Assembly: GCA_963765435.1 (NCBI GenBank) | Contig: CAVXWK010000002.1 | Coordinates: forward strand, 1,561,664 to 1,625,663 | DNA: 64,000 bases | Origin: an uncultured delta proteobacterium | GTDB lineage: Bacteria; Desulfobacterota; BSN033; UBA1163 | Direction of reading: 5' to 3' | Shown here: piece by piece, positions 5,719 to 30,288 of the stretch | Position numbering within the stretch: the stretch's first letter is position 1 | How the letters are laid out: each line of letters starts with the position of its first letter | Program-made: the position numbers and the translations under genes | The notes under the pieces: model-generated | Told to the model about the DNA's origin: nothing | The model's database searches: none | Seen by the model: only the letters and a program-made list of their open reading frames with translations

Positions 5719-6666
5719 ATGATCAGGCTACTGAAAATTCTTGGAATGCAATTGATCTTCTTCTTGCTCGTGTTCGGTCTTTACGAGAAGGGATGGACAG
5801 AGGAGAGATATACGGTCAAACCGGGTGATACGCTTTATGGGATTTCAAAATCATCGGGTGTTAGCGTCGAGACGTTAAAAAAAGCGAATGCCCTGGAGGA
5901 AGAATCGATCAAGCCGAAACAGGTTCTGACGATTCCATCCCGGGGAGAAAATAAAGCAGCAGGTGGTGCGGGAAAACCTGCGAGCCAGACCGGCAAAAAA
6001 CTTTCAGCTGCAGCTGTCAGAAGAGCTTTGGGAGAAACGGATTCTTATGTCGTGCAGAAAGGAGATACCCTCAACAGTATTTCAAAGAAGGTCGGTCTCT
6101 CGACAAAGGGAATTATGATGAGGAACGGCCTCCACACTTCGGGCTTAAAGACCGGTCAAATCCTTCTTCTTCCAAGAGAGGCGAGCCAGCAGGATGACGA
6201 GGCAGAAGAATTGGGGGACGGGGATGCACGAGTAGAAACCGAACCAGATACCTCCGCCCCTCTTGGAAAATGGAGTAATTCGGAAGAGCAAGGTCTTCTG
6301 GTAAGGGTTGCGAAAGCATTCTTGGGGGTGCCGTACAAATTGGGGGGCTCCACGTTAAAAGGGATTGATTGTTCTGCCTTGGTAAAAAAGATCTACGAGG
6401 TTTTTAATATCCAACTTCCGAGAACCGCGCGGGAGCAGTTTACGGCTGGGAAAAGAGTTGAGAAGGCCCAATTGGAGGAAGGGGATCTGGTTTTTTTCAG
6501 ACGGGCCGGAAATAGGGCTCATGTGGGGATCTACGTGGGTGACAATCAATTTATTCACGCCTCTTCTCATGGCCGAGAGGTGAGGGTAGACTATCTGAAT
6601 ACCCCTTACTTCAGTCAACGCTTTCTCAGGGGAGTCCGGATAATGGAATCGGAGAAAGAGATTTAA
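5719..6666 (+). CDS. Peptidoglycan endopeptidase, 2x LysM + NlpC/P60
   Basis: Signal/TM N-terminus. Two LysM repeats (YTVKPGDTLYGISK..., YVVQKGDTLNSISKK...). The NlpC/P60 domain carries GIDCSALV (Cys) and AHVGIYVG (His). Confidence 0.85.
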   Translation: MIRLLKILGMQLIFFLLVFGLYEKGWTEERYTVKPGDTLYGISKSSGVSVETLKKANALEEESIKPKQVLTIPSRGENKAAGGAGKPASQTGKKLSAAAVRRALGETDSYVVQKGDTLNSISKKVGLSTKGIMMRNGLHTSGLKTGQILLLPREASQQDDEAEELGDGDARVETEPDTSAPLGKWSNSEEQGLLVRVAKAFLGVPYKLGGSTLKGIDCSALVKKIYEVFNIQLPRTAREQFTAGKRVEKAQLEEGDLVFFRRAGNRAHVGIYVGDNQFIHASSHGREVRVDYLNTPYFSQRFLRGVRIMESEKEI

Positions 6667-6696: not shown

Positions 6697-7305
6697 ATGA
6701 TCATTGCCATCAACCCCAAAAATCCTCAACCCAGACTGATTCGGAGGGTTGTGGAGGTCCTCAAGGAAGGCGGTGTGGTCGGATATCCCACAGACACCAT
6801 CTATGGAATCGGATGCAACCTTTTCAATCCGGAGGCGATCCGGAGAATTCATCGATTGAAGAAATTGGAGGGGAAGAAATTATTAAGCTTCATCTGCTCC
6901 GATTTGAAGGATATCAGTCGCTATGCCTATGTATCCAACTATGCCTATAAAATGATGAAACGTCTGCTTCCAGGTGCTTATACCTTCGTGTTGAAGGCGA
7001 CGAAGCTGGTCCCGAAGATAGCCATGACCAAACAGAACACGGTGGGGATAAGAATCCCCGACAACAAGATATGCTTGGCCCTCGTCAAGGAGTTGGGACA
7101 CCCGATTATCAGCACCAGTGTCTATAAACCGGATGAGGGACTGTACAACGATCCCGCCGGGATTGAAGAGCGATTTGGAAAACAGTTAGACCTCGTCATC
7201 GATGGAGGGGTGATCGTCGCAGAACATTCGAGCATGATTGACCTCACCGGTGATTCTCCGCGAGTCATTCGAAAAGGGAAAGGGGATATCAGCCTTTTCC
7301 TTTAA
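6697..7305 (+). CDS. tsaC: L-threonylcarbamoyladenylate synthase (YrdC/TsaC domain)
   Basis: VGYPTDTIYGIGCN, KLLSFICSD and GAYTFVL match the YrdC fold. I chose the ATG at 6697, preceded by aaggaga, over the upstream TTG at 6673. Confidence 0.8.
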   Translation: MIIAINPKNPQPRLIRRVVEVLKEGGVVGYPTDTIYGIGCNLFNPEAIRRIHRLKKLEGKKLLSFICSDLKDISRYAYVSNYAYKMMKRLLPGAYTFVLKATKLVPKIAMTKQNTVGIRIPDNKICLALVKELGHPIISTSVYKPDEGLYNDPAGIEERFGKQLDLVIDGGVIVAEHSSMIDLTGDSPRVIRKGKGDISLFL

Positions 7306-8019: not shown

Positions 8020-8895
8020 ATGATCATTGACTGCCATACTCATATCTTTCCCGAGGAAGTAAGAAAGGATCGGGAGGCCTTCTGTAAAAAGGACGACGCG
8101 TTTTTATCCATTTATAGGGATTCGAAGTCCAAGATGGTCGGAGTGGAGGATTTGATCGCCTCGATGGATGAATCCGGCATTGATCGGTCTGTCATTTGCG
8201 GGTTCCCTTGGACGCAACCTGATCTCTGTTCCTTTCATAATCAATACTTGATGGCATCGGCCTCACGGTATCCAAATCGGTTGATTGTCTTTGTTTCCCT
8301 TCTCTTTTCAAATCCGGGTTGGTCAGGGAGAGAATTAGACCGGGCCCTGAACGGCGGGGCAAAGGGGGTAGGGGAGATCGCCTTCTACCACGATGAAATG
8401 ACTTCCCGTGATGTTCATTCCATGAAACCAATCCTTACCCAAATGGAGAAGCAGGGCGTCCCTCTTCTTCTCCATACCAATGAGACGATCGGCCATTCCT
8501 ACCCCGGGAAGGGAAGGACACCCCTCGAGCGCTTTTATGAACTCATCCTCTCTTTTCCAAAACTTCCCATCATCCTAGCGCACTGGGGAGGCGGCCTTCC
8601 CTTTTACGAGTTGATGCCGGAGGTGGCGAAGGTGATGACCAATGTCTACTATGATACGGCGGCTTCGCCTTTTCTGTATTCGGGGAGGATTTATGCGGTT
8701 GCCAAAGACATGGTAGGGGCCGAAAAGATCTTTTTCGGAACAGACTATCCTCTGATCTCACCCCGGCGATATTTTAAGGAATTAGAAGCATCGAGCCTCT
8801 CAAAACAGGATCGGGAAAAGATCCTGGGTCTCAATTTTTCAAGACTGATTTCGGGACGGATTAAAGAAAACCCGCCGTTGCTAAACTGTTCTTAA
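8020..8895 (+). CDS. Amidohydrolase-family metal-dependent hydrolase (TIM barrel)
   Basis: Begins MIIDCHTHIF (HxH metal motif), later LLLHTNE and FGTDYP. I chose the internal ATG at 8020. Confidence 0.7.
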   Translation: MIIDCHTHIFPEEVRKDREAFCKKDDAFLSIYRDSKSKMVGVEDLIASMDESGIDRSVICGFPWTQPDLCSFHNQYLMASASRYPNRLIVFVSLLFSNPGWSGRELDRALNGGAKGVGEIAFYHDEMTSRDVHSMKPILTQMEKQGVPLLLHTNETIGHSYPGKGRTPLERFYELILSFPKLPIILAHWGGGLPFYELMPEVAKVMTNVYYDTAASPFLYSGRIYAVAKDMVGAEKIFFGTDYPLISPRRYFKELEASSLSKQDREKILGLNFSRLISGRIKENPPLLNCS

Positions 8896-19696: not shown

Positions 19697-20710
19697 TCAT
19701 GGACCGATTAATAAAGGATCGATGATGGCGAAGCTTCCATCCGATTCGAGGCGCAGGACTCTAAAGATAAGGGTATCATCACGGTTTTCTATCTCGCAGA
19801 AGTGGAAAAAACGAAGTTCGGGGCCGGAAAAGAGGTCTTGGTAGCGCCGCTTTCGGGGATCGATCATAACCTTGTGCCTCGGCCCACCTCCTCCCCCGGA
19901 GACAATGAAGAACTTATCTCCGATTTGAAAGCGCTCATAGGAATGACTGTGACCGCTGAAGAATAAGCGAGTCTTTTGGAACCGGAGAAAAGGGTCGGCA
20001 AAATAAACTTTGACTTTCTCGTTTGGCCCGACTACCCGGCTGTTGGTAAACGGTGGTTCGTGGCAGCAGACAATAACGAAAGCAACTTCCTTGTTCCTTT
20101 CGAATTTCTCAAGCTCGCCCAAATACCACTGAGACTGTCCCTCGATTTGTTCTTTCGTGAGGGTGGAGAAATTGGAATCAACCAGGATCAATCCCACATT
20201 CTTCCAGGTGAAACTGTACCAGCGTTTTTTATTAAGATAAGGGAAACGCTCGAAATAGTTCTGTAGCGCTTTCTCGTCATTGCCATAAAGCTCATGGTTT
20301 CCAAGGGTCGGAAAATACGGGATCTTTTTCTCACGAAATTCTTTGTGCATCTCGTCGAATTCATGCCAGTGTTTATCTGAACTGCCCCGAGTAGTAAGGT
20401 CACCGAGATGGACAACAAAGGCCGGTTCACGTTTAGTGATTTCATCAATGATTAGCTTTCGCTCCTTATCATTCCTTTCCCGCCAGAACTCCCAGTGACT
20501 TGTACTTTGTGTGTCCCCAACGATGAGGAAGCGATTTTTTGTTGCCTGGATCTCTGCAAAGCCAGCGTAGGAGGGGACTGACCGGGATTTTTGTTCCAAG
20601 GCTATTGCGCCGGCGGCCTCGGCCATTAAGAAAATACTTAACAACACTGCAAGAAGAATTGTGATTTCCATTATCAACTTCTTCATGGGTGACACACGAT
20701 TAATTTTCAC
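19697..20710 (-). CDS. Secreted calcineurin-like metallophosphoesterase
   Basis: Signal peptide present. Motifs: GDTQ, GDLTTRG, GNHE, CCHEPP, GHSHSYE. Confidence 0.8.
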   Translation of the reverse strand: MKINRVSPMKKLIMEITILLAVLLSIFLMAEAAGAIALEQKSRSVPSYAGFAEIQATKNRFLIVGDTQSTSHWEFWRERNDKERKLIIDEITKREPAFVVHLGDLTTRGSSDKHWHEFDEMHKEFREKKIPYFPTLGNHELYGNDEKALQNYFERFPYLNKKRWYSFTWKNVGLILVDSNFSTLTKEQIEGQSQWYLGELEKFERNKEVAFVIVCCHEPPFTNSRVVGPNEKVKVYFADPFLRFQKTRLFFSGHSHSYERFQIGDKFFIVSGGGGGPRHKVMIDPRKRRYQDLFSGPELRFFHFCEIENRDDTLIFRVLRLESDGSFAIIDPLLIGP

Positions 20711-21012: not shown

Positions 21013-21275
21013 TGATGGACACGCCTGAAAATTTGTATGATTGGGTAGGAGGTCCGTATGGAGGGAAGAGACGCCATTTCAGCCGTGGGTTCTAACGTCA
21101 TGCAGTGCAAATGGTTACGGAGAAAGGAATGTCGGTAGGTAAGGTGGCCAGAGAGCTTGATATTCATCCCAATCTGCTCCATCTATGGAGGAAGAAGTTG
21201 TTAGCTGAAGGGGATAGAGCTTTTGTCCGGAAGGGCCATGTCACGCCAGAGGAAGCGATAATAAAGGGGCTCCGG
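21013..21275 (+). pseudogene. IS3-family transposase orfA remnant (HTH part only, in-frame stop, 3' truncated)
   Basis: The frame beginning at 21060 reads GGKRRHFSRGF*RHAVQMVTEKGMSVGKVARELDIHPNLLHLWRKKLLAEGDRAF. This matches the IS3 OrfA pattern KRR.FS.EFK..AV.LV...G.SV..VAREL.I..N.L..W. A TAA stop lies at 21093. No orfB or DDE region follows. Confidence 0.55.
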
Positions 21276-21391
21276 ATCATCACAGCACAGACTTCTTCCT
21301 CTCTGGCCACGGTACTCTTACAACGATTAATAGTTTCTAATTTTCTGATGACTGCAATAATTCTTGACCGTTCTTTGAAATTAATAAACGG

Positions 21392-22465
21392 TTATTCAAT
21401 CAATTGTAAGATTCCTTGAAGTTTTTTATTGAGAAGTGCCGTATAATGAACACCTCCTTTGTAGGATAAGTGTAATGTATTTAGAAACTCTTCGTCGGGA
21501 ATAGATTTATATAGATCGATAAAAGAGATGCCTTCCCCTTCCAGGTGAGGTTTAAGATCGTCCTCGACCCATTTTTGATAATCCTTTCCCAGCTGCGAAG
21601 TACGGCTCCAGGATCCGCTATAGATATTCACGACGACGACATTCGTCTGGCAATGAAGTGTTTTTAGAAAGTTTTTGAAGTCTTCCGTAATCCTGCTTGG
21701 GATTTTGGCATTCCTCATGTATTGCTTCACTAGTTCTCCATAAATGCTGACGCGATTGGAGGGAAGTGTCGTATCACCATTAGTTTTTTGTATCCCTTGA
21801 AAAAGGCTTAAAATATTGCGTCGAATGTCTTTCAGGGTTTTGTAATTGACGCCGAATTGGGGGTCCGGACGACCGATACAAATTGTTGCTAAACTAAGGC
21901 GCATCTTTAAATTTCCAAGAACCCACTCTTTTCTCAAGTCGGACACGCTTCCATAGATAGTGAGATCATCGTTGACAGTATAAAAGTCAAAAAGCTCGAG
22001 ATATTGCTTCATGGGTATATCATCGGATGGCTTGTTTGCCAGGCTTGGCAATTCAATGGCGACGACCACTATATCCGTTTTGTTTAAAACATGGTTGCTG
22101 TATTTATTAAGATAATTGAGCAAAATAGGATACCCATCGGCGTTGTCGGCACGCGCAGCAAGATTTGAAAATCTCCAGCATGAAGGCAGGTGGAGTAACT
22201 CTGGAATCACTCCCACGACTGTGCTGGAGGCTCCCAACAAAATTATGTTATGGTTCTGTGCCAGGCGAAAAACATCACGGTAAAGCATATGGATTTCCCA
22301 GGGCAGTCCATTTCGTAAAGGATCCTGATAAATTCCGCCTGCAAGATATTTTTTATATTGCTCTCTGTCTATTCTCTCAAGAAATACTGTCGAGCAATAA
22401 AGAGAGATTGCATATAATATAAAAGTCACCAATATTGTTATTAATAATGGCTTGTAGGTCTTCAT
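21392..22465 (-). CDS. DltD-like extracytoplasmic acyl-transfer protein (single N-terminal TM, SGNH-like motifs)
   Basis: 357 aa with TM segment LLITILVTFILYAISLYCSTVF. ILLGASSTVVG resembles the DltD GSSE serine block. C-terminal NTLHLSYKGG resembles DltD D-T-x-H-L-G-W-K-G-W. It is the last gene of the MBOAT operon. Confidence 0.5.
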   Translation of the reverse strand: MKTYKPLLITILVTFILYAISLYCSTVFLERIDREQYKKYLAGGIYQDPLRNGLPWEIHMLYRDVFRLAQNHNIILLGASSTVVGVIPELLHLPSCWRFSNLAARADNADGYPILLNYLNKYSNHVLNKTDIVVVAIELPSLANKPSDDIPMKQYLELFDFYTVNDDLTIYGSVSDLRKEWVLGNLKMRLSLATICIGRPDPQFGVNYKTLKDIRRNILSLFQGIQKTNGDTTLPSNRVSIYGELVKQYMRNAKIPSRITEDFKNFLKTLHCQTNVVVVNIYSGSWSRTSQLGKDYQKWVEDDLKPHLEGEGISFIDLYKSIPDEEFLNTLHLSYKGGVHYTALLNKKLQGILQLIE

Positions 22466-22469
22466 GGTT

Positions 22470-22574
22470 TTAAAAATTTTGATAGAGTACGTAAAGTTTT
22501 GATTTAGAACCGAGGATGATCAGGATAACCAATATTTTTACAGAAAGCCATAGCAGACTGTACCAGTAACGCAT
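22470..22574 (-). CDS. 34-aa transmembrane micro-ORF with C-terminal VLYQNF (DltX-like acyl-shuttle microprotein candidate)
   Basis: Not in the ORF track. The plus strand reads cat at 22572-22574 (ATG on minus). GGAGG lies 6 nt upstream, directly after the MBOAT TAA. Translation: MRYWYSLLWLSVKILVILIILGSKSKLYVLYQNF*. Its stop is 4 nt before the next start. Confidence 0.45.
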   Translation of the reverse strand: MRYWYSLLWLSVKILVILIILGSKSKLYVLYQNF

Positions 22575-22585
22575 GAGACGCCTCC

Positions 22586-23791
22586 TTACGTTATTAAATT
22601 TAAAAGCGAGGTTGTCAGCTTTTTTATGTCATACTCGAAGAATAGAAAAGTAAAACAAACAAAGTGAATCGTTATCATTGTTTCAACAATGGTAACCTTT
22701 ATGTTCTTCCGATACAAATCGAACCGTTCCTTGCCCAATACCTTCAACATGGTATCCCGGTACATCATCGAAAGGGCCATGCCGGATCCATGAAGAAGGC
22801 CGAAAACGATAAAGTTGATCGTAGTCCCATGCCATACTCCGGCAACAAAAAAAGTTATAAAAATGCTGATATATTGTGCCAGATTGGGTGATTTTTTTAA
22901 ATATCCTGTAAGCAAATATTTGAAATGCGGCTGATAAAGGAAATCACGCAGCCATTCGGATAATGTAATGTGCCATCTATTCCAGAATTCGATCATGTTT
23001 CTGGCCAGGTAAGGACGATTAAAATTTTCCGGTATTGAAAATCCGGCCCATCGGGCAATCCCAATGACCACGTCACAGTATCCGGAAAAGTTGAAATAGA
23101 CATATAAAGGATAGAAATAAAATATCATCAAAAGGCCCGTCAGATGGGATTTACCCTCCAGAAGCCGATCGTACCCTGAATCAGCGATATCTTTAAAAAG
23201 AACCCCAAAAATAAGGATTTTCAGCAGTCCATTCACAGCACGGTGGAGTTGCTTTAAAATTTCGTTTTTATCGAGAAGCGGTGTCGCCTGGTAGAACGAG
23301 GAGGTAAAATCCTTGAATCTCTGAATCGGCCCCGCCATGATGGTATAGAAAGAAAAAAGGTAGTTCCCGTAGTCGATTGGGCTGAACTCTGTTAACATTC
23401 CGGCGCTGGAATGGACCATTACATCAAGCTGGCGGAACAGGATATAAGAAAGGCCGAGCGACTTGGTGAGGCGGAAGATAGACCGACCGACAATCGGCCG
23501 AATGATCCATGTGTAACCATTCAGATATATAAAAATGAATATTAGTAAAACGGTAAATGGCCATAAGGGAAGCTTCCGTCTCCGATTTCCGTAGATATAG
23601 AAGAGGGGGATCATCAGAAATATGACTATCCCGATAAGTTCCCGCCATGAATCGAGAGAGGCGGCGTATAGGACCAAACTGCAGATAAAAAAGAAGACTC
23701 CGCGGTAATGCCGCTCTTTGACCATAAAAATAAGAGGGGAGAGAAGAAGCAGTAGCAGGAACCAACCACTATCAATTGAGATTCTGATCAT
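22586..23791 (-). CDS. Membrane-bound O-acyltransferase (MBOAT; DltB/AlgI/PatA family)
   Basis: 401 aa and polytopic. Signature FWNRWHITLSEWLRDFLY and second His block FFVAGVWHGTTINFIVFGLLHG. Confidence 0.85.
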   Translation of the reverse strand: MIRISIDSGWFLLLLLLSPLIFMVKERHYRGVFFFICSLVLYAASLDSWRELIGIVIFLMIPLFYIYGNRRRKLPLWPFTVLLIFIFIYLNGYTWIIRPIVGRSIFRLTKSLGLSYILFRQLDVMVHSSAGMLTEFSPIDYGNYLFSFYTIMAGPIQRFKDFTSSFYQATPLLDKNEILKQLHRAVNGLLKILIFGVLFKDIADSGYDRLLEGKSHLTGLLMIFYFYPLYVYFNFSGYCDVVIGIARWAGFSIPENFNRPYLARNMIEFWNRWHITLSEWLRDFLYQPHFKYLLTGYLKKSPNLAQYISIFITFFVAGVWHGTTINFIVFGLLHGSGMALSMMYRDTMLKVLGKERFDLYRKNIKVTIVETMITIHFVCFTFLFFEYDIKKLTTSLLNLIT

Positions 23792-25434
23792 GAAATGCGT
23801 CTATACTCGGCGACAGCCAGACTGAACTGATTTATTAGCCTTTCTTTTCCTTCGAAACGACCAGCATTATCCTGACGCAACATTGTGTTGATGATATCTT
23901 GACAGTTTTTTATCATCTCCCAGGGGAAACCACGGTCCCTTAAATAAACAAGATACCAAAGACCCGGGTCAGGATCTACAAAGAGAGAACCATGTATTTC
24001 TTCGAACATTTTCAGCTTTAATTCGGATGCGGTCGTACTGGTCATCGTTTTATGCTTCCAGCGGTATCCTTCACCCTCGAGTCCGTATTCTGATCGTTTT
24101 TGAAAGACCGGCGCTGTGTGGAGATAATAGAACTCCTTGATCGAGAAAAAGTCAAGCTCTGTCTCCTCAATAAAGGAAACATTGCTTTGCACGGACTCTT
24201 CCGTTTCTCCAGGAAAACCAAGAATAAACATTCCAAATAGCGGGATATTGTTCTTTTTCATCATCGCGATCGTCCGCCTATAATCATCAACGCGCGCTTT
24301 CTTATTCATGTTTCTGAGCACTGTATCGCTGGCGCTTTCTAACCCTAGGTAAAGGCCGTCACATCCACTCTCTTTCATATCCCGTATAAGATTTTCATCA
24401 GCAAGCTGAGCGCGATAAAAAGCATACCACCGGAAGTCGTATTTTTTTAGGAGCGATACAATCTCTCGAAATCTGCTGACAGGAAAATTGAAGGTATCAT
24501 CCACAAAAACGATTGCTTCAACACTGTTCATATCACGGACTGCATCGAGTTGTTTCTCTATCTGTTCCATGGAACTATGATGAAAACCGTGTGCAACCGC
24601 AGGGTAGGAGCAGAACGCACACCGGAATGGGCACCCCGAGCTCGTTCGTATTTGAACTGTTTTTGAGGGGATATGATGATCGACAATGTCCTTATAGGGA
24701 AGAATCTTCGAAAGAGACGGTTTGTTCCAAACCGTCGGGGTGACCTTATATCGGCCTTCTCGATCGATATAAATAAGGTTATTAACATTGTCAAAAGTAT
24801 CCGTATCATTTTGAAGCGCTTGGGCAAAGGAAGCGATATCCGGCTCTGGGTTCAAGCTATGAAGGATACAGGAAATGCCGTATTTTCTCATGGGTTTTTC
24901 AAGGATGTCGGGCCCTTTTGTGAGGAACTGGTCGTTTACGAATGCACCGCCGAGGACAATCAAGGGATTCTGGATGTTCTCCTGGATTTTTTTTACCATC
25001 CTTCCTATCTCCGACCACTGGAGGATAAAGGTTGTAGAAATTCCTATGATCGGCAAAGACATGTGGGTGCTGTATTCGAGGAGAAGGTCCCATTCGGCAT
25101 CAAAATTATTGATTACCCTGCAGACCAATCCAGCCTCCATAAATGGGTGTATCGCAGTGATCCCATTGAGTCCAGGCATATTCCAGATACTGAAGAGAGA
25201 CCGTTTCTCTTCATATTGACCTTCATGGAAATATTTACCGAAAAGAACCTTGTTGAATAGATCCAGGTGTGAATGAAAACCGTTATCCCAATATACCATC
25301 CTGAGTTGTACCAGATTCCTGTAAAGATCGATACGATCGATGGGCATACGGCTGTATTGCTCGTACTGAACCACTTCTGACTGGGTGATCAGGATCAAAT
25401 CTATTTTTTCTGTTCCCATGATTCGTTTAGCCAT
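23788..25434 (-). CDS. B12-binding-domain radical SAM enzyme (class B-like)
   Basis: 548 aa. The N-terminal Rossmann-like region (PIIGISTTF...PLIVLGGAF) precedes SSGCPFRCAFCSYP (CX3CX2C). Its stop overlaps the MBOAT start (ATGA). Confidence 0.75.
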   Translation of the reverse strand: MAKRIMGTEKIDLILITQSEVVQYEQYSRMPIDRIDLYRNLVQLRMVYWDNGFHSHLDLFNKVLFGKYFHEGQYEEKRSLFSIWNMPGLNGITAIHPFMEAGLVCRVINNFDAEWDLLLEYSTHMSLPIIGISTTFILQWSEIGRMVKKIQENIQNPLIVLGGAFVNDQFLTKGPDILEKPMRKYGISCILHSLNPEPDIASFAQALQNDTDTFDNVNNLIYIDREGRYKVTPTVWNKPSLSKILPYKDIVDHHIPSKTVQIRTSSGCPFRCAFCSYPAVAHGFHHSSMEQIEKQLDAVRDMNSVEAIVFVDDTFNFPVSRFREIVSLLKKYDFRWYAFYRAQLADENLIRDMKESGCDGLYLGLESASDTVLRNMNKKARVDDYRRTIAMMKKNNIPLFGMFILGFPGETEESVQSNVSFIEETELDFFSIKEFYYLHTAPVFQKRSEYGLEGEGYRWKHKTMTSTTASELKLKMFEEIHGSLFVDPDPGLWYLVYLRDRGFPWEMIKNCQDIINTMLRQDNAGRFEGKERLINQFSLAVAEYRRIS

Positions 25435-25472: not shown

Positions 25473-25718
25473 TCAGGCAAGCTTTTTGTGAATAAGGGAT
25501 ATGAATTCACCTACGTTTTTGAGCTCCATAATCTCTGCAGTTTTAAAGGTAACGCCGAACTCCTGCTCGGAGGCGACGACGAGTTGAACATGTTTCAGAG
25601 AATCCCACTCCTCAACATCTTCCGCCGTCATTTCATCAAATAATTCTATTTCTTCATTATCAAAAACATCACGGAACACATTCTGAAGGCGTGCTTTGAT
25701 TTGTGTCCGGTCTGCCAT
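25473..25718 (-). CDS. Acyl/peptidyl carrier protein
   Basis: 81 aa and acidic. The phosphopantetheine site context is EEWDSLKHVQLV (DSL). Confidence 0.8.
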   Translation of the reverse strand: MADRTQIKARLQNVFRDVFDNEEIELFDEMTAEDVEEWDSLKHVQLVVASEQEFGVTFKTAEIMELKNVGEFISLIHKKLA

Positions 25719-25720
25719 CT

Positions 25721-27592
25721 TTATCTCATTCTTTTCTTAAGTTCTATTTGATGAGGTCGATCTACAAAATCGGACACTTTCAGTCGGTAGACGATCCCGT
25801 CAGGATGGGCAAGAGCAAACCAACCGTTATTCGATCGTTCAAAGCCCAATTCCAGGTATAGATTTTTCACCAGGCTGTTTTTCTTCGTAGGAATATACTC
25901 GCCGACCATCCATTCGGATGCCCAGCTTTTTGCAGCCGCTCCTATCGCATTCAGTGCGGCATTCTCGACCCTGCGCTTGAGGACTCTGCAACTCATCACC
26001 CACGTATCAATAAAAGCGATGTCTTCGATTTTCTGAATGATGATCGACGATATGATTCCATAGCTTCCGAATTTATCTGCGAGGCTGATCGATAGGGGAA
26101 ACCATTCCTCCGGGTCTTCCCGCATCTGCTCCACCGCGGCCTCTGTATAGCGTTTCGTACGTAGGTTGAATTGATTGCTTTTGTTGATGAGTTGGGTAAA
26201 ACGCGGAGATTCCATGGATGAAATGAGACTAATTTCCCCTTTCATTTCCAGAGACTTGAGGTAAGAGTCATAATCGGCACAACTGACAGCAAGCTCCTGC
26301 CGCTTCTTGTCCATGATATAGGAGTCCGACCGTCTCATGTCTTCCTTGCTCAATTGAACCCATTCGAAACTACACGATCTTTCAAGAGCTCTCACAAACA
26401 GGGCGGGATCTTCCGGCACCTCGACAATCTCCACTTCGGGGAGAACCTGTCGAATAATCTCACGTTCGGCAGGATTGTCGTCGAAGAAGACAAGAGAATC
26501 GAGACCAATATTCAGTCTGTTTGCAATCTCTCTGAGGTTGCTCGCTTTATCGTTCCAGTTAGCCATAAAACAGGCGACATCATCGATTTTCAAAATCATA
26601 TCCGGGTGCTGTTCAAAAGGTGTCCTTGCGATTTCTTCATCGTTCTTGCTGCAGACCGCAACGATCACGCCTCTTTCCTTCAGTGTTTTAATGTACTTCT
26701 GAAAAGCGATATAAGCTTCACCCAGGGCATCGTTGGGACTCATATTAATTCCCTCAAGTCCATCATCACCGATAACCCCTCCCCACAATGTATTATCAAG
26801 ATCGAGCACAAGGCACTTTTTTGCTTTTCCTGCTTGCGATGCAATAAGACGAGAGATTGTATGGGCAACAAGCGATGCTGCGTCAAAGGAAAATCCTTGT
26901 TTACTCATAAAGTAATTCACGTCATCGAACCAACGGTACTTCCCGAAAGCCGAAGCGAGGTAGTCCATATCAATGTATGTCACATAAGGAGGTTTTTGAC
27001 GGATCAGTTCTATATTGAGAGCCCGAAGACAACTGGATGCCGAAAAGGGGTAGTTTCCTTCCAGGTTGCCCAGTTGACGGTAAAGGGGTAATATGAACAA
27101 GGTTTGGAAGATATGGCAGCCTTTTATTTTGGCGGCATTCTTCCAAATCCCCTGATAGTGTTGAACTTTTGCACCAATCCATCTATGAATCTCCTCTTCG
27201 GAAGCAAAGAGTTCAGGATAGTCTTTAATATCATTGTGGTGGGTCAAGATCAGGAGGATTTCCGGTTGGAAAGAAAATATTTGCGAATTCGGATCCATCA
27301 GCTCCGCAGTAATCGCATCATATTCTCCCTCGTAAAAAACCGGTGCGATGCCGTACCGATAGAGAAATAGTTTAAAAATACCTACATAGTGATGCGTGGT
27401 AAACGACCCCAGGATCCCGATCTTTTTTTTAACTAAAGTGCCGGAGTGTTTTTCGTAGAAAGTCTTTTCGACTTTGTTGAATTTGGAAGCAAGAGAAAGA
27501 AGTTCGCTTCCAGTCATGGAGAGCATTTTCTCTGATGTAAACAAATCCTCGAATAACTTTAGTCTTTCTTTTCCCTTGTGGGTTGTTTCCAT
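25721..27592 (-). CDS. FkbH-like protein (HAD-IIIC phosphatase domain + C-terminal acyltransferase-like domain)
   Basis: LVLDLDNTLWGGVIGDDGLEGI (DxDxT with the FkbH-typical LWGG), AVCSKNDE and FFDDNPAERE. The ATG at 27592 overlaps the MaoC stop (TAATG). An alternative upstream ATG lies at 27613. Confidence 0.8.
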   Translation of the reverse strand: METTHKGKERLKLFEDLFTSEKMLSMTGSELLSLASKFNKVEKTFYEKHSGTLVKKKIGILGSFTTHHYVGIFKLFLYRYGIAPVFYEGEYDAITAELMDPNSQIFSFQPEILLILTHHNDIKDYPELFASEEEIHRWIGAKVQHYQGIWKNAAKIKGCHIFQTLFILPLYRQLGNLEGNYPFSASSCLRALNIELIRQKPPYVTYIDMDYLASAFGKYRWFDDVNYFMSKQGFSFDAASLVAHTISRLIASQAGKAKKCLVLDLDNTLWGGVIGDDGLEGINMSPNDALGEAYIAFQKYIKTLKERGVIVAVCSKNDEEIARTPFEQHPDMILKIDDVACFMANWNDKASNLREIANRLNIGLDSLVFFDDNPAEREIIRQVLPEVEIVEVPEDPALFVRALERSCSFEWVQLSKEDMRRSDSYIMDKKRQELAVSCADYDSYLKSLEMKGEISLISSMESPRFTQLINKSNQFNLRTKRYTEAAVEQMREDPEEWFPLSISLADKFGSYGIISSIIIQKIEDIAFIDTWVMSCRVLKRRVENAALNAIGAAAKSWASEWMVGEYIPTKKNSLVKNLYLELGFERSNNGWFALAHPDGIVYRLKVSDFVDRPHQIELKKRMR

Positions 27593-28008
27593 TACAAACA
27601 CTTGACCTGACATTTACCTGAGGCGATGCTTTCCCCTGTTATATTGGAAAATTCCAGGGCGAGTTCGATCACCCTGACTGAAACGCTTATCGCAACGACC
27701 GTTGCGGTCAGTTGAATGGTGTCTCCGATATAAACGGGTTTTTCAAAATCGAACCTTTCAGAAAGAAGCATTACTTCCTGATGGCCCAAATCCATGCCGA
27801 CCAAAGTGGAGAGGAGCATTCCATAAATATTCCCATAGACCACGCGGCTCTTAAACCCTTTTCCCCGGGCATATTGATCATCGACATGAAGAGGATTAAA
27901 ATCGCCCGAAAGCCTTCCATACCGTTCCAGAAGTTCGGATGTGATCGCAAGGGTTCTGGTAAACTTTTCCCCCCTGGAAAATAAATTGAGTGGATCTCCG
28001 CTATTCAT
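27592..28008 (-). CDS. MaoC-like (R)-hydratase/dehydratase hotdog protein
   Basis: 138 aa. LSGDFNPLHVDDQYA is the MaoC hydratase motif. Confidence 0.8.
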   Translation of the reverse strand: MNSGDPLNLFSRGEKFTRTLAITSELLERYGRLSGDFNPLHVDDQYARGKGFKSRVVYGNIYGMLLSTLVGMDLGHQEVMLLSERFDFEKPVYIGDTIQLTATVVAISVSVRVIELALEFSNITGESIASGKCQVKCL

Positions 28009-28142: not shown

Positions 28143-28171
28143 AATATAAAAAAAAGGGGGTTCCTTGTCAA
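28143..28171 (-). promoter_or_regulatory. Near-consensus sigma-70 promoter for the MaoC-to-DltD-like operon
   Basis: The minus strand reads TTGACA (28171-28166), a 17-nt spacer aggaacccccttttttt, then TATATT (28148-28143). It lies about 135 nt upstream of the 28008 start. Confidence 0.55.
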
Positions 28172-28438: not shown

Positions 28439-29551
28439 ATGGATTCCCAAAAAATTTTAGTTTTGAGGCTGAGTGCGGTGGGGGATGTCATCCGGACGCT
28501 GCCTGCGGTAAAAGCGTTAAAAGAGCACAGGCCTTCCTCCTTTATCACCTGGATCGTCGAAGAACCCTCTCGAGCTCTCCTGGAAAGTCAACCAGAGGTC
28601 GATGAGGTGATCCTATTTCCAAGGAAAAGGTGGACCAGAGGAATAAAATCGCTAAAGGGGATATGGGCTACCTTCGGGGAAATGCGGGGATTTGTCAAAG
28701 ACCTTCGGAGGCGAAAGTTTGACATCGTTCTCGATTTTCACGGGATTCTCAAAAGCGGTGTTCTCTCTTTTCTTTCAGGCTCCCCCAAGAGGATTGGATA
28801 CGATCGAAGGTCGACCAAGGAGGGGAATTTCCTATTTTCAAACGTAAAAGCGATGCTCCCGCAGCATAAGGTCAGTCGGTTTCAAAGAAATCTTGCACTT
28901 CTCAAGGGAATGGGAGTGGAAGTGGAAGGATCTAAATATCGCCTTCATATCCCGCCAGAGGATCGGGAATATATGGGGTCATTTTTTAAGGCATCATCAG
29001 CATTCGTTAATAGACCTTTGATTGCGATCCATCCGGGGACGAGCCAAAAGGCTTTCTTTAAGCGATGGATGCCTGATCAGTATGCCCAATTGGCGGATCG
29101 ATTGGTCCGAGAACTTAATGCCTCCGTTCTTTTTACCTGGGGAGATGAGGAATTGGGATGGGTGGAAAGTATTCGAAAACAGATGAAAGAACCGTCTCTT
29201 CTGGCGCCCAAAACCGAATCTTTGACACAACTGGGGGAGCTATACAGAAACTGCGATCTTTATATCGGAGGTGACACTGGACCGATGCATATTGCTTCCC
29301 TCATGGGAATCCCTGCCGTCGTCATTTATGGACCGACAGACCCGATCGAAAATGAGCCTTTTGGGAACCACATCAAAGTGAGAAAAGAAGTGGGGTGCAG
29401 CCCGTGTCACGAGTATTCCTGTAAAAAACTTGACTGTATCAGAGCCGTCTCAGCCAACGAAGTTTTTAAGGCGACGAAAGAGATTTTAGGCATCTTGCCA
29501 AGCTCGGAACCTATGAGAGATAAAAAGAGAGACCTCGAATGTCGCTCATAA
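28439..29551 (+). CDS. ADP-heptose:LPS heptosyltransferase (GT9)
   Basis: ILVLRLSAVGDVIRTLPAVKALKE at the N-terminus and GGDTGPMHIA near the C-terminus are GT9 hallmarks. Confidence 0.85.
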   Translation: MDSQKILVLRLSAVGDVIRTLPAVKALKEHRPSSFITWIVEEPSRALLESQPEVDEVILFPRKRWTRGIKSLKGIWATFGEMRGFVKDLRRRKFDIVLDFHGILKSGVLSFLSGSPKRIGYDRRSTKEGNFLFSNVKAMLPQHKVSRFQRNLALLKGMGVEVEGSKYRLHIPPEDREYMGSFFKASSAFVNRPLIAIHPGTSQKAFFKRWMPDQYAQLADRLVRELNASVLFTWGDEELGWVESIRKQMKEPSLLAPKTESLTQLGELYRNCDLYIGGDTGPMHIASLMGIPAVVIYGPTDPIENEPFGNHIKVRKEVGCSPCHEYSCKKLDCIRAVSANEVFKATKEILGILPSSEPMRDKKRDLECRS

Positions 29552-30288
29552 AGAATATGGCTGCATTCAAGAATTGGTATATGCTTTATGCAGGACGTTA
29601 TGGATTTCTGCATAAGGAGATTGAGTTGATACATCGAAGTGGTTTAAGAATCAGGTTGCGGCCGAATACGGATGATTTGAGAATTGTAAAATCGAATTTT
29701 GTCAAGAAAAACTATACAAAGGATTTTGTCCCAATCACAAAAGACTCCATTGTTGTCGATGTGGGAGCCCACATCGGATCCTTCTCTATCATGGTTGCAA
29801 GAAATGCTTACAAGGTGCTCGCTTTTGAGCCGGAGCCGACGAATTATCAAATGCTCAAGAAAAATGTGGAGCTAAACCACCTGGAGAATATGTCTATCTT
29901 TGCGATGGCGGTTTCTGGTAGAACTGGACATCAAGATATTTATACCTATCAAGGTGGCTCTTCGGCTGATTATTCCCTGTACGAAAGGGGGATCACGAAT
30001 ATTAAGGCGGGACGTATTCCCACGATTTCGGTCGAAGACATCTTCAAGCGAGAGGGTCTACCCCGAATTGATTTCCTGAAGCTGGATTGCGAAGGCGCTG
30101 AACATGATATCCTGAAGAATATGCGTTTGGAAACTGCCACTAAAATAATGGGAATGGCTATGGAAACGCATCGTGTCCCGTCGGAATTCTCCATCGATAT
30201 TCCTTTGAGACTTAAAGAATTGGGTTTTGAAATTAGAATGAACGGCAGCGGTGGGTATATCTATGCCAAGCGAACGCATCCAAAGTGA
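29539..30288 (+). CDS. FkbM-family SAM-dependent methyltransferase
   Basis: VVDVGAHIGSFS, AFEPEPTNYQML and IDFLKLDCEGAEHDIL. Confidence 0.8.
   Translation: MSLIKNMAAFKNWYMLYAGRYGFLHKEIELIHRSGLRIRLRPNTDDLRIVKSNFVKKNYTKDFVPITKDSIVVDVGAHIGSFSIMVARNAYKVLAFEPEPTNYQMLKKNVELNHLENMSIFAMAVSGRTGHQDIYTYQGGSSADYSLYERGITNIKAGRIPTISVEDIFKREGLPRIDFLKLDCEGAEHDILKNMRLETATKIMGMAMETHRVPSEFSIDIPLRLKELGFEIRMNGSGGYIYAKRTHPK

Follow-up and report, generated by a model that had tools for sequence, protein, structure and literature searches.

A relay in which a tyrosine carries the acyl group has been worked out only for D-alanylation, where the carrier is DltX of the Gram-positive teichoic-acid pathway dltXABCD (Schultz et al., 2023, as summarized in PMC12148441), and for peptidoglycan O-acetylation, where the C-terminal tail of PatA takes this part. 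DltX and the PatA-type MBOATs share a C-terminal motif that was published as FXYXXF, the tyrosine of which is the acylated residue, and PatA auto-acetylates the tyrosine of its own motif (PMC12148441). The topology of DltX is N-in/C-out (PMC5541007). MBOAT pathways other than Dlt are stated to operate without a carrier protein and without a DltX-like microprotein (PMC12148441, published in 2025).

Here we describe a locus that resembles the Dlt system in its architecture and differs from it in the way the acyl unit appears to be loaded. It lies in a stretch of 64,000 nucleotides from an uncultured delta proteobacterium, which was analyzed as a whole and is referred to below as the window. Judging from sequence comparisons, a 34-codon open reading frame (ORF) between an MBOAT gene and a gene for an SGNH-like protein probably encodes a single-pass membrane microprotein that acts as the detachable tyrosine acyl-shuttle subunit of a Dlt-like relay.

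The Micro-ORF and Its Immediate Surroundings

The micro-ORF had been proposed in a sequence-only reading of the window, and its coordinates, its strand and the spacing of GGAGG, ATG and stop codon all proved exact when the sequence was read again. The features of this part of the window, with the basis of each in brackets, are as follows.

22470–22574, minus strand: micro-ORF, 34 codons plus stop (window sequence; gene calls on the metagenome contigs L001 and L002; comparative data)
22473–22490, minus strand: C-terminal hexapeptide V29-L-Y31-Q-N-F34, the proposed acyl-shuttle motif (conservation and the published FXYXXF)
22581–22585, minus strand: Shine-Dalgarno sequence GGAGG, 6 nt 5' of the micro-ORF ATG (direct sequence reading)
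22586–23791, minus strand: DltB-like MBOAT, 401 aa (PF03062; TIGR04091; structures 6BUG and 8JEM)
21392–22465, minus strand: membrane-anchored SGNH-like protein, 357 aa, putative DltD/AlgX-type partner (iterated HMM family; conserved triad; profile matches)

Read from 22574 to 22470 on the minus strand of the window sequence, the micro-ORF translates to MRYWYSLLWLSVKILVILIILGSKSKLYVLYQNF, followed by a stop codon. The stop codon TAA of the MBOAT gene (22588–22586) is followed directly by GGAGG (22585–22581), a 6-nt spacer and the ATG of the micro-ORF (22574–22572), and the micro-ORF's own TAA (22472–22470) is separated by the four nucleotides AACC from the ATG of the 357-aa gene (22465), leaving gaps of 11 nt to the MBOAT gene and 4 nt to the 357-aa gene. 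The predicted product has a short N-terminus, a tail of 12–13 residues and, between them, the single hydrophobic helix that the earlier reading had described (approximately residues 4–22, with Lys13 within it). Model searches with this product gave no Pfam or NCBIfam match, and a search of Rfam returned no RNA element in the operon and none overlapping the micro-ORF. The six frames of the whole window hold 1503 segments of 25 aa or more between stop codons; three of them end in Y-x-x-F, and the micro-ORF alone (1/1503) ends in two hydrophobic residues followed by Y-x-x-F.

The contigs L001 and L002, whose operons are 95–96% identical to that of the window, contain the same micro-ORF, and there it was called as a gene; the exact 34-aa protein is already present in public collections, without a functional name. 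The earlier description of the ORF as unannotated is therefore to be qualified, as gene callers did predict it on these two contigs. The public entries for the microproteins of the related loci are likewise unnamed or labeled "hypothetical."

The 181 nt that hold the micro-ORF and both its junctions (window 22440–22620) are 100% identical to L001 and to L002, with flanks that are 96.2% (MBOAT gene) and 97.8% (SGNH gene) identical, and at a divergence of ~3% the occurrence of zero differences in 181 nt would be unlikely (roughly 0.4%). Because this stretch is identical, the comparison of the window with L001 and L002 is uninformative with respect to selection on the micro-ORF.

Conservation and Selection Across Related Loci

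A profile of the MBOAT relatives retrieved 80 independent genome loci, to which the metagenome contigs L001 and L002 are additional. A separate small ORF of 30–51 aa, whose product has a single hydrophobic helix and then a tail that ends in h-h-Y-x-x-F (h, hydrophobic), was found in 35 of the 80 loci (the split form). It adjoins the MBOAT gene in 34 of these 35, and in 33 of the 35 its start lies within ~80 nt of the MBOAT stop codon, frequently as an ATGA overlap; in L021 the ORF ends ~500 nt downstream of the MBOAT stop codon and in L023 it is located ~3 kb upstream of the MBOAT gene. In a further 43 of the 80 loci the form is fused, in that an MBOAT of ~476–492 aa itself ends in ...[I/F]VY[K/R][A/T]F, a layout like that of PatA. 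Only two of the 80 loci have neither a split nor a fused shuttle, one of them being a truncated contig. The split form spans at least seven phyla, namely Nitrospirota relatives, Bacillota, Myxococcota, Planctomycetota, Elusimicrobiota, Acidobacteriota and Gemmatimonadota, and the gene order of MBOAT, microprotein and SGNH protein is kept in most split loci.

In an alignment of 29 of the microproteins, Met1, Tyr31 and Phe34 are the only invariant columns. Between L011 and L019, the codons of the small gene differ by 16 synonymous and two non-synonymous changes over 30 codons, and within clades the changes are mostly synonymous; pooled differences number 381, 197 and 709 at the first, second and third codon position, respectively. 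The sequence-only reading had taken the close spacing to its neighbors as typical of a real gene, and cross-phylum conservation together with the synonymous excess in the codons now bears this out: as judged from these comparisons, the micro-ORF is a real protein-coding gene under purifying selection, and the features under selection in the microprotein are the tyrosine and the terminal phenylalanine. Conservation of a small ORF in homologous FkbH/MBOAT loci, on which that reading had made its case depend, is found as well, in the split form in 35 of the 80 loci and with both residues invariant in 29 of 29 aligned sequences.

Two of the loci show further arrangements. In L004, from a genome of the Magnetobacteriaceae, the microprotein gene (8120–8326) lies in the frame of the MBOAT gene, with one stop codon and four codons preceding its own ATG, so that a single stop-codon change would yield the fused form. 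In the Acidobacteriota locus L039, two MBOAT paralogs of the fused type lie in tandem (ORF ends at 6326 and 8209), each ending in DIVYK[A/T]F.

Hexapeptide, Helix and Predicted Topology

The micro-ORF carries the motif at its very C-terminus, as VLYQNF followed by the stop codon, with Tyr31 encoded by 22484–22482. The motif had been given in the sequence-only reading as F-I-Y-x-x-F for DltX, with the tyrosine and the terminal phenylalanine in the register seen here, which agrees with the published FXYXXF (PMC12148441), the valine at position 1 being a relaxation of the published phenylalanine. Across the 29 microproteins, position 1 is V in 15, F in seven, I in six and L in one, and position 2 is L, V or I. 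The register is constant in the family, with Phe as the last residue and Tyr three residues before it, and the tail that follows the helix is 11–17 residues long. Position 1 of FxYxxF is variable even in true DltX, since the canonical DltX encoded on the megaplasmid of Niallia taxi (L084, 31–174) ends in YIYNDF and not in FIYNEF.

Family-wide, Lys and Arg residues number 95 in the N-terminal flank of the helix vs. 19 in its C-terminal flank, which favors an N-in/C-out topology for the family, with the tail predicted to lie outside the cell. The charges of the window microprotein alone are ambiguous, with one Lys/Arg residue before the helix (R2) vs. two after it (SKSK).

A charged residue is located in the middle of the helix, which is Lys in the Nitrospirota-like and many Bacillota microproteins (LS[IVL]K[IVL]; Lys13 in the window, codon 22536–22538) and Glu in several from Lachnospiraceae (LSLELA). 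This suggests, from sequence, a specific intramembrane contact with the MBOAT.

The MBOAT and SGNH-Like Neighbors

The sequence-only reading had placed the micro-ORF between an MBOAT gene and a DltD-like gene, and the flanking genes fit this description. The MBOAT aligns with the DltB model TIGR04091 over its full length, at a score of 202 bits that is below the cutoff of 375; its closest solved structures are those of DltB (6BUG and 8JEM, E 4e-33), and its sequence identity with Listeria DltB is 31% (E 3e-42). By these comparisons it is DltB-like in architecture and not a DltB ortholog, and its best relatives bear Nitrospirae or Magnetobacterium names. Its C-terminus (...SLLNLIT) has no shuttle motif of its own. 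A WHG sequence that includes His321 is invariant in the MBOAT alignment, and by analogy His321 is presumed to be the catalytic histidine.

The 357-aa window protein itself has no Pfam or NCBIfam match. It has an N-terminal transmembrane helix, a G78-A-S80 sequence corresponding to block I and a D329-x-x-H332 sequence corresponding to block V. Iterated searching with an HMM matched 56 ORFs and recovered the family of this protein from most of the 82 loci; its genes usually lie directly after that for the microprotein or the MBOAT and, in Bacillota, upstream of FkbH. Ser, Asp and His of GxS and DxxH are 90–100% conserved across this family. Among 26 family members, 11 match Lipase_GDSL_2 and one matches the DltD family PF04914 (E 0.008). 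The two best matches of the family profile in the PDB are AlgX (4KNC, E 0.0078) and DltD (6O93, E 0.008), and hhalign aligned the family with Listeria DltD over 91 columns in the block V region (84%, E 7.6e-6). The similarity to DltD and AlgX of this membrane-anchored SGNH protein is thus weak but specific.

An AlphaFold2 model of the SGNH protein, built from an alignment of 11 sequences, is poor (mean pLDDT 50.7), and a Foldseek search with this low-confidence model found nothing at E ≤ 0.001, the best matches being SGNH esterases at E 0.015 and DltD (7DXM) at E 0.065. The model is consistent with an SGNH fold and is not counted as evidence. As in systems of the shuttle class, an MBOAT with an invariant WHG histidine (His321) is paired here with a downstream protein that has conserved GxS...DxxH, the support at the level of the fold being weak. 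A word-indexed protein search with the 357-aa sequence found a single relative (96% identical) and one with a family profile found 10; a profile of the SGNH family matched 427 clusters (50% identity) among 1.84 billion representative proteins.

Putative Loading and Tailoring Genes of the Operon

The operon comprises eight minus-strand genes, tightly spaced or overlapping, behind a strong promoter-like site. Among them are, in order, genes for a MaoC dehydratase, FkbH, an acyl carrier protein (ACP), a B12 radical SAM methyltransferase, the MBOAT, the micro-ORF product and the 357-aa protein. The features upstream of the MBOAT gene are listed here.

28143–28171, minus strand: promoter-like site TTGACA-17-TATATT with 11/12 matches, located 135 nt before the first operon gene (consensus match only)
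27592–28008, minus strand: MaoC-type (R)-hydratase/dehydratase, 138 aa, putative accessory tailoring enzyme (PF01575, E 1.6e-15)
25721–27613, minus strand: FkbH-family loading enzyme, 630 aa, with FkbH_N, HAD-IIIC phosphatase and FkbH domains (TIGR01686, PF21211)
25473–25718, minus strand: acyl carrier protein, 81 aa, with a DSL phosphopantetheine site, putative counterpart of DltC (PF00550, E 1.8e-5)
23788–25434, minus strand: B12-binding radical SAM methyltransferase of the PhpK subfamily, 548 aa, putative accessory enzyme (PF04055, E 5e-25; TIGR04479)

FkbH passes the cutoff of TIGR01686 (293.4 bits vs. 146.65, residues 264–594) and has the DxDxT motif of HAD proteins (LDLDNT). The ACP matches NCBIfam ACP models below their cutoffs, and the radical SAM protein scores 359 bits against TIGR04479, below the cutoff of 600. 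Pfam and NCBIfam searches of the operon genes found no DltA-type adenylating enzyme; FkbH precedes the ACP instead.

In 63 of the 80 genome loci, FkbH and an ACP are neighbors of the MBOAT; they lie at a distance of no more than 7 kb in 31 of the 35 split and 31 of the 43 fused loci. A scheme in which a split shuttle would go with a carrier protein and a fused shuttle with acyl-CoA was considered and rejected, since FkbH and ACP accompany the fused shuttle, too, in those 31 of 43 loci. The remaining enzymes are less common: a MaoC homolog occurs in 15 of the 80 genome loci, and homologs of the radical SAM protein are present only in L001, L002, L024 and L060, that is, in two of the 80 genome loci (L024 and L060). 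This pattern suggests that, in certain lineages, the MaoC and radical SAM enzymes modify the acyl unit on the ACP before it is exported.

FkbH/ACP modules serve polyketide and tetronate biosynthesis, in which they form glyceryl-ACP. The locus is like these modules in that its FkbH domain exceeds the curated cutoff and has a stand-alone ACP next to it, but differs from them in the apparent consumers, which are the MBOAT and the SGNH protein, no polyketide synthase (PKS) or non-ribosomal peptide synthetase (NRPS) being encoded in the neighborhood of the operon. With MBOAT and SGNH protein as the downstream consumers, export of the acyl unit to the cell surface would be expected rather than chain extension.

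Genes on both sides of the operon were also noted. Divergent from it, at 28439–30288 on the plus strand of the window, are genes for a GT9 heptosyltransferase and an FkbM-type methyltransferase, followed in L001 by a second GT9 gene; these divergent genes hint at the lipopolysaccharide (LPS) core or a related glycan as the acceptor. As TonB-type and heptosyltransferase genes lie near the locus, the host is taken to be a diderm. On the other side, an HTH_Tnp_1 transposase ORF (21105–21419, plus strand, E 6e-8) lies on the opposite strand, shares 28 nt with the 3' end of the SGNH gene and separates the operon from a calcineurin-like phosphoesterase gene (19697–20710), a layout that is the same in L001 and L002.

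Relation to DltX and to Fused MBOAT Tails

The resemblance to DltX that the sequence-only reading had proposed holds for the motif, its register and the partner proteins, but does not extend to membership of the DltX family of sequences. The DltX model PF12459 is matched by none of the 29 microproteins even at E ≤ 10, whereas DltX of Bacillus thuringiensis, used as a control, matches at 2e-21. Comparison of the microproteins with one and with five DltX sequences by hhalign gave values of 5–11%, which are not significant; the hexapeptides nevertheless align in register. A sequence search found no DltX chain in the PDB.

In contrast, the microprotein profile aligned with the tails of fused MBOATs, represented by the last 45 residues of those in the FkbH-associated clade, at 93% (hhalign, E 2.5e-7), ungapped and over the last 25 positions. 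Homology of the microprotein to the fused shuttle tails is shown by this profile comparison, and the micro-ORF is best regarded, on sequence, as a stand-alone form of the shuttle segment with which MBOATs of the same clade end, with the microprotein as a functional analog of DltX and not a member of the DltX family.

Like DltX, the microprotein is shorter than 50 aa and has one transmembrane helix, for which an N-in/C-out orientation is here predicted from sequence. Its tail, predicted to be extracytoplasmic, likewise closes with a hexapeptide in which the terminal Phe comes three residues after an invariant Tyr. The systems also agree in their other components, which are an MBOAT of the DltB type of ~400 aa without a motif of its own, a carrier protein as acyl donor and a membrane-anchored SGNH protein. 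They differ in gene order, as dltX lies upstream of dltA (dltXABCD in Listeria) and the microprotein gene lies between the MBOAT and SGNH genes; in the motif, position 1 of which is more often V, I or L than F in the microproteins; and in the tail, which is two to three residues shorter here. In addition, the loader is FkbH and not the adenylating DltA, hence the acyl group would be something other than D-alanine, and the host is a diderm. With the C-termini of PatA/AlgI-type MBOATs, the microprotein shares the h-x-Y-x-x-F end on a final transmembrane helix, predicted in the microprotein to run outward, but it is a separate gene product with one helix, in contrast to an extension of ~80 aa with two helices. 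Moreover, the characterized fused systems use acyl-CoA and no carrier, whereas both split and fused members of the present group adjoin FkbH/ACP.

A second family of transmembrane microproteins was encountered in three MBOAT loci. These proteins of ~49 aa match Pfam DUF5989 (E 1e-24 to 1e-26), end in a canonical F-I-Y-T-[L/V/I]-F and are encoded in L033 (minus strand, ~5930–6079), in L076 (plus strand, end at 6736, directly upstream of the MBOAT gene) and in L040 (end at 756); in all three loci they adjoin genes for a carbamoyltransferase (PF02543/PF16861) and SxtJ. From its sequence, the DUF5989 family may be another unrecognized tyrosine-shuttle microprotein, possibly for carbamoyl groups.

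A Proposed Acyl Relay and Its Alternatives

In the mechanism that we propose, FkbH would charge the dedicated ACP with an acyl unit; judging from characterized FkbH enzymes, this unit could be, speculatively, a glyceryl-type C3 unit derived from a glycolytic intermediate, and the MaoC dehydratase and the B12 radical SAM methylase may alter the ACP-bound unit further. At the cytoplasmic face, acyl-ACP would then donate its acyl group to the MBOAT, which at the outer face would hand it on to Tyr31 of the microprotein, from where the flexible VLYQNF tail would deliver the acyl-tyrosine ester to Ser80 of the SGNH protein. The latter would finally esterify a surface glycan, and LPS is a possible, speculative target, because the operon is divergent from heptosyltransferase genes. 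The two transfers, from the MBOAT to Tyr31 and from Tyr31 to Ser80, are modeled on the biochemistry of DltX and PatA (PMC12148441) and on the pattern of conservation. Along with them we infer that the micro-ORF is translated in this organism and that Tyr31 becomes acylated, and likewise which acyl group is carried and what accepts it.

The same conservation and gene context, which make up the support for a shuttle here, could be expected if the microprotein were real but served as a structural or assembly subunit that bridges or stabilizes an MBOAT-SGNH complex, in which the MBOAT hands the acyl group directly to the SGNH serine or to the acceptor and the tyrosine is kept for packing, and the conserved Lys or Glu inside the helix does suggest a specific helix-helix contact. 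It is, however, the tyrosine and the terminal phenylalanine of the tail that are invariant, and not positions of the helix, and the same motif tyrosine is acylated in both experimentally tested systems, DltX and PatA (PMC12148441), so that a purely structural role is considered unlikely. That the locus is a true Dlt D-alanylation operon, with the micro-ORF as the DltX ortholog, would agree with DltB as the best family and structure match of the MBOAT and with the presence of an ACP and of an SGNH/DltD-like protein. Yet FkbH occupies the loading position and a DltA-type adenylating enzyme is missing, the DltB model is matched at 202 bits vs. a cutoff of 375, and the DltX model of Pfam recognizes 0 of 29 microproteins but B. 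thuringiensis DltX at 2e-21; the micro-ORF follows the MBOAT gene instead of preceding dltA, and TonB and heptosyltransferase genes mark the host as a diderm. Together these points leave this explanation highly improbable.

The abundance of fused relatives (43 of 80 loci), to whose tails the microprotein is homologous, and the IS-type HTH_Tnp_1 ORF just downstream of the operon raise the question of whether the micro-ORF is a stranded C-terminal fragment of a once-fused MBOAT, left as a pseudogene remnant or created by an assembly error. Such an origin is very unlikely, as the micro-ORF is preceded by a GGAGG and begins with an ATG of its own, three independent assemblies give one and the same sequence, and the split form occurs in 35 loci of many phyla, each time with its own start codon and under purifying selection. 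Furthermore, the split MBOATs are uniformly ~386–418 aa long, which is the length of DltB, and the microprotein contains one helix in comparison to the fused extension of ~80 aa, a difference that a single frameshift would not give. Finally, a length of only 34 codons and the lack of a match to any protein family model are what would be expected of an untranslated chance frame in an intergenic spacer. This idea can practically be discarded, being contradicted by conservation across phyla with an invariant C-terminal Y-x-x-F, by the excess of synonymous changes, by the finding that one of 1503 window segments has such an end and by the lack of overlap with an Rfam RNA. A tyrosine acyl shuttle is the preferred function of the microprotein.

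Implications for Envelope Acylation

Beside D-alanylation and peptidoglycan O-acetylation, the window and 62 of the 80 related genome loci present a third arrangement, which consists of FkbH, ACP, MBOAT and SGNH protein with a shuttle that is either split or fused. Because a carrier protein and a shuttle microprotein are both present, the FkbH-ACP-MBOAT loci would be counter-examples to the generalization about MBOAT pathways other than Dlt (PMC12148441). In the searchable literature, no paper was found that links FkbH with MBOAT/AlgI envelope acylation, and an earlier listing in Schultz et al. (2023) is possible.

The small genes of 30–50 aa in such operons are currently "hypothetical" or overlooked and seem to be important ones, and the natural series of split and fused forms offers a test bed for what a shuttle requires of its helix and tail. 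The loci point to a surface modification in bacteria that include Nitrospirota-like lineages, Lachnospiraceae, Acidobacteriota, Bradyrhizobium and Pseudomonas; this modification is probably an ester of the glyceryl type. Whether they represent a widespread and undescribed third class of MBOAT-SGNH envelope acylation, carrier-dependent, with a glycolysis-derived hydroxyacyl unit (glyceryl-type) loaded by FkbH, in diderms and monoderms and with split and fused shuttles, is on the present sequence comparisons an evenly balanced question. If true, such a class would contradict the rule that non-Dlt MBOAT pathways use acyl-CoA and no microprotein, and many phyla would be predicted to bear glycerate-type esters on their LPS or on other glycans of the cell surface.
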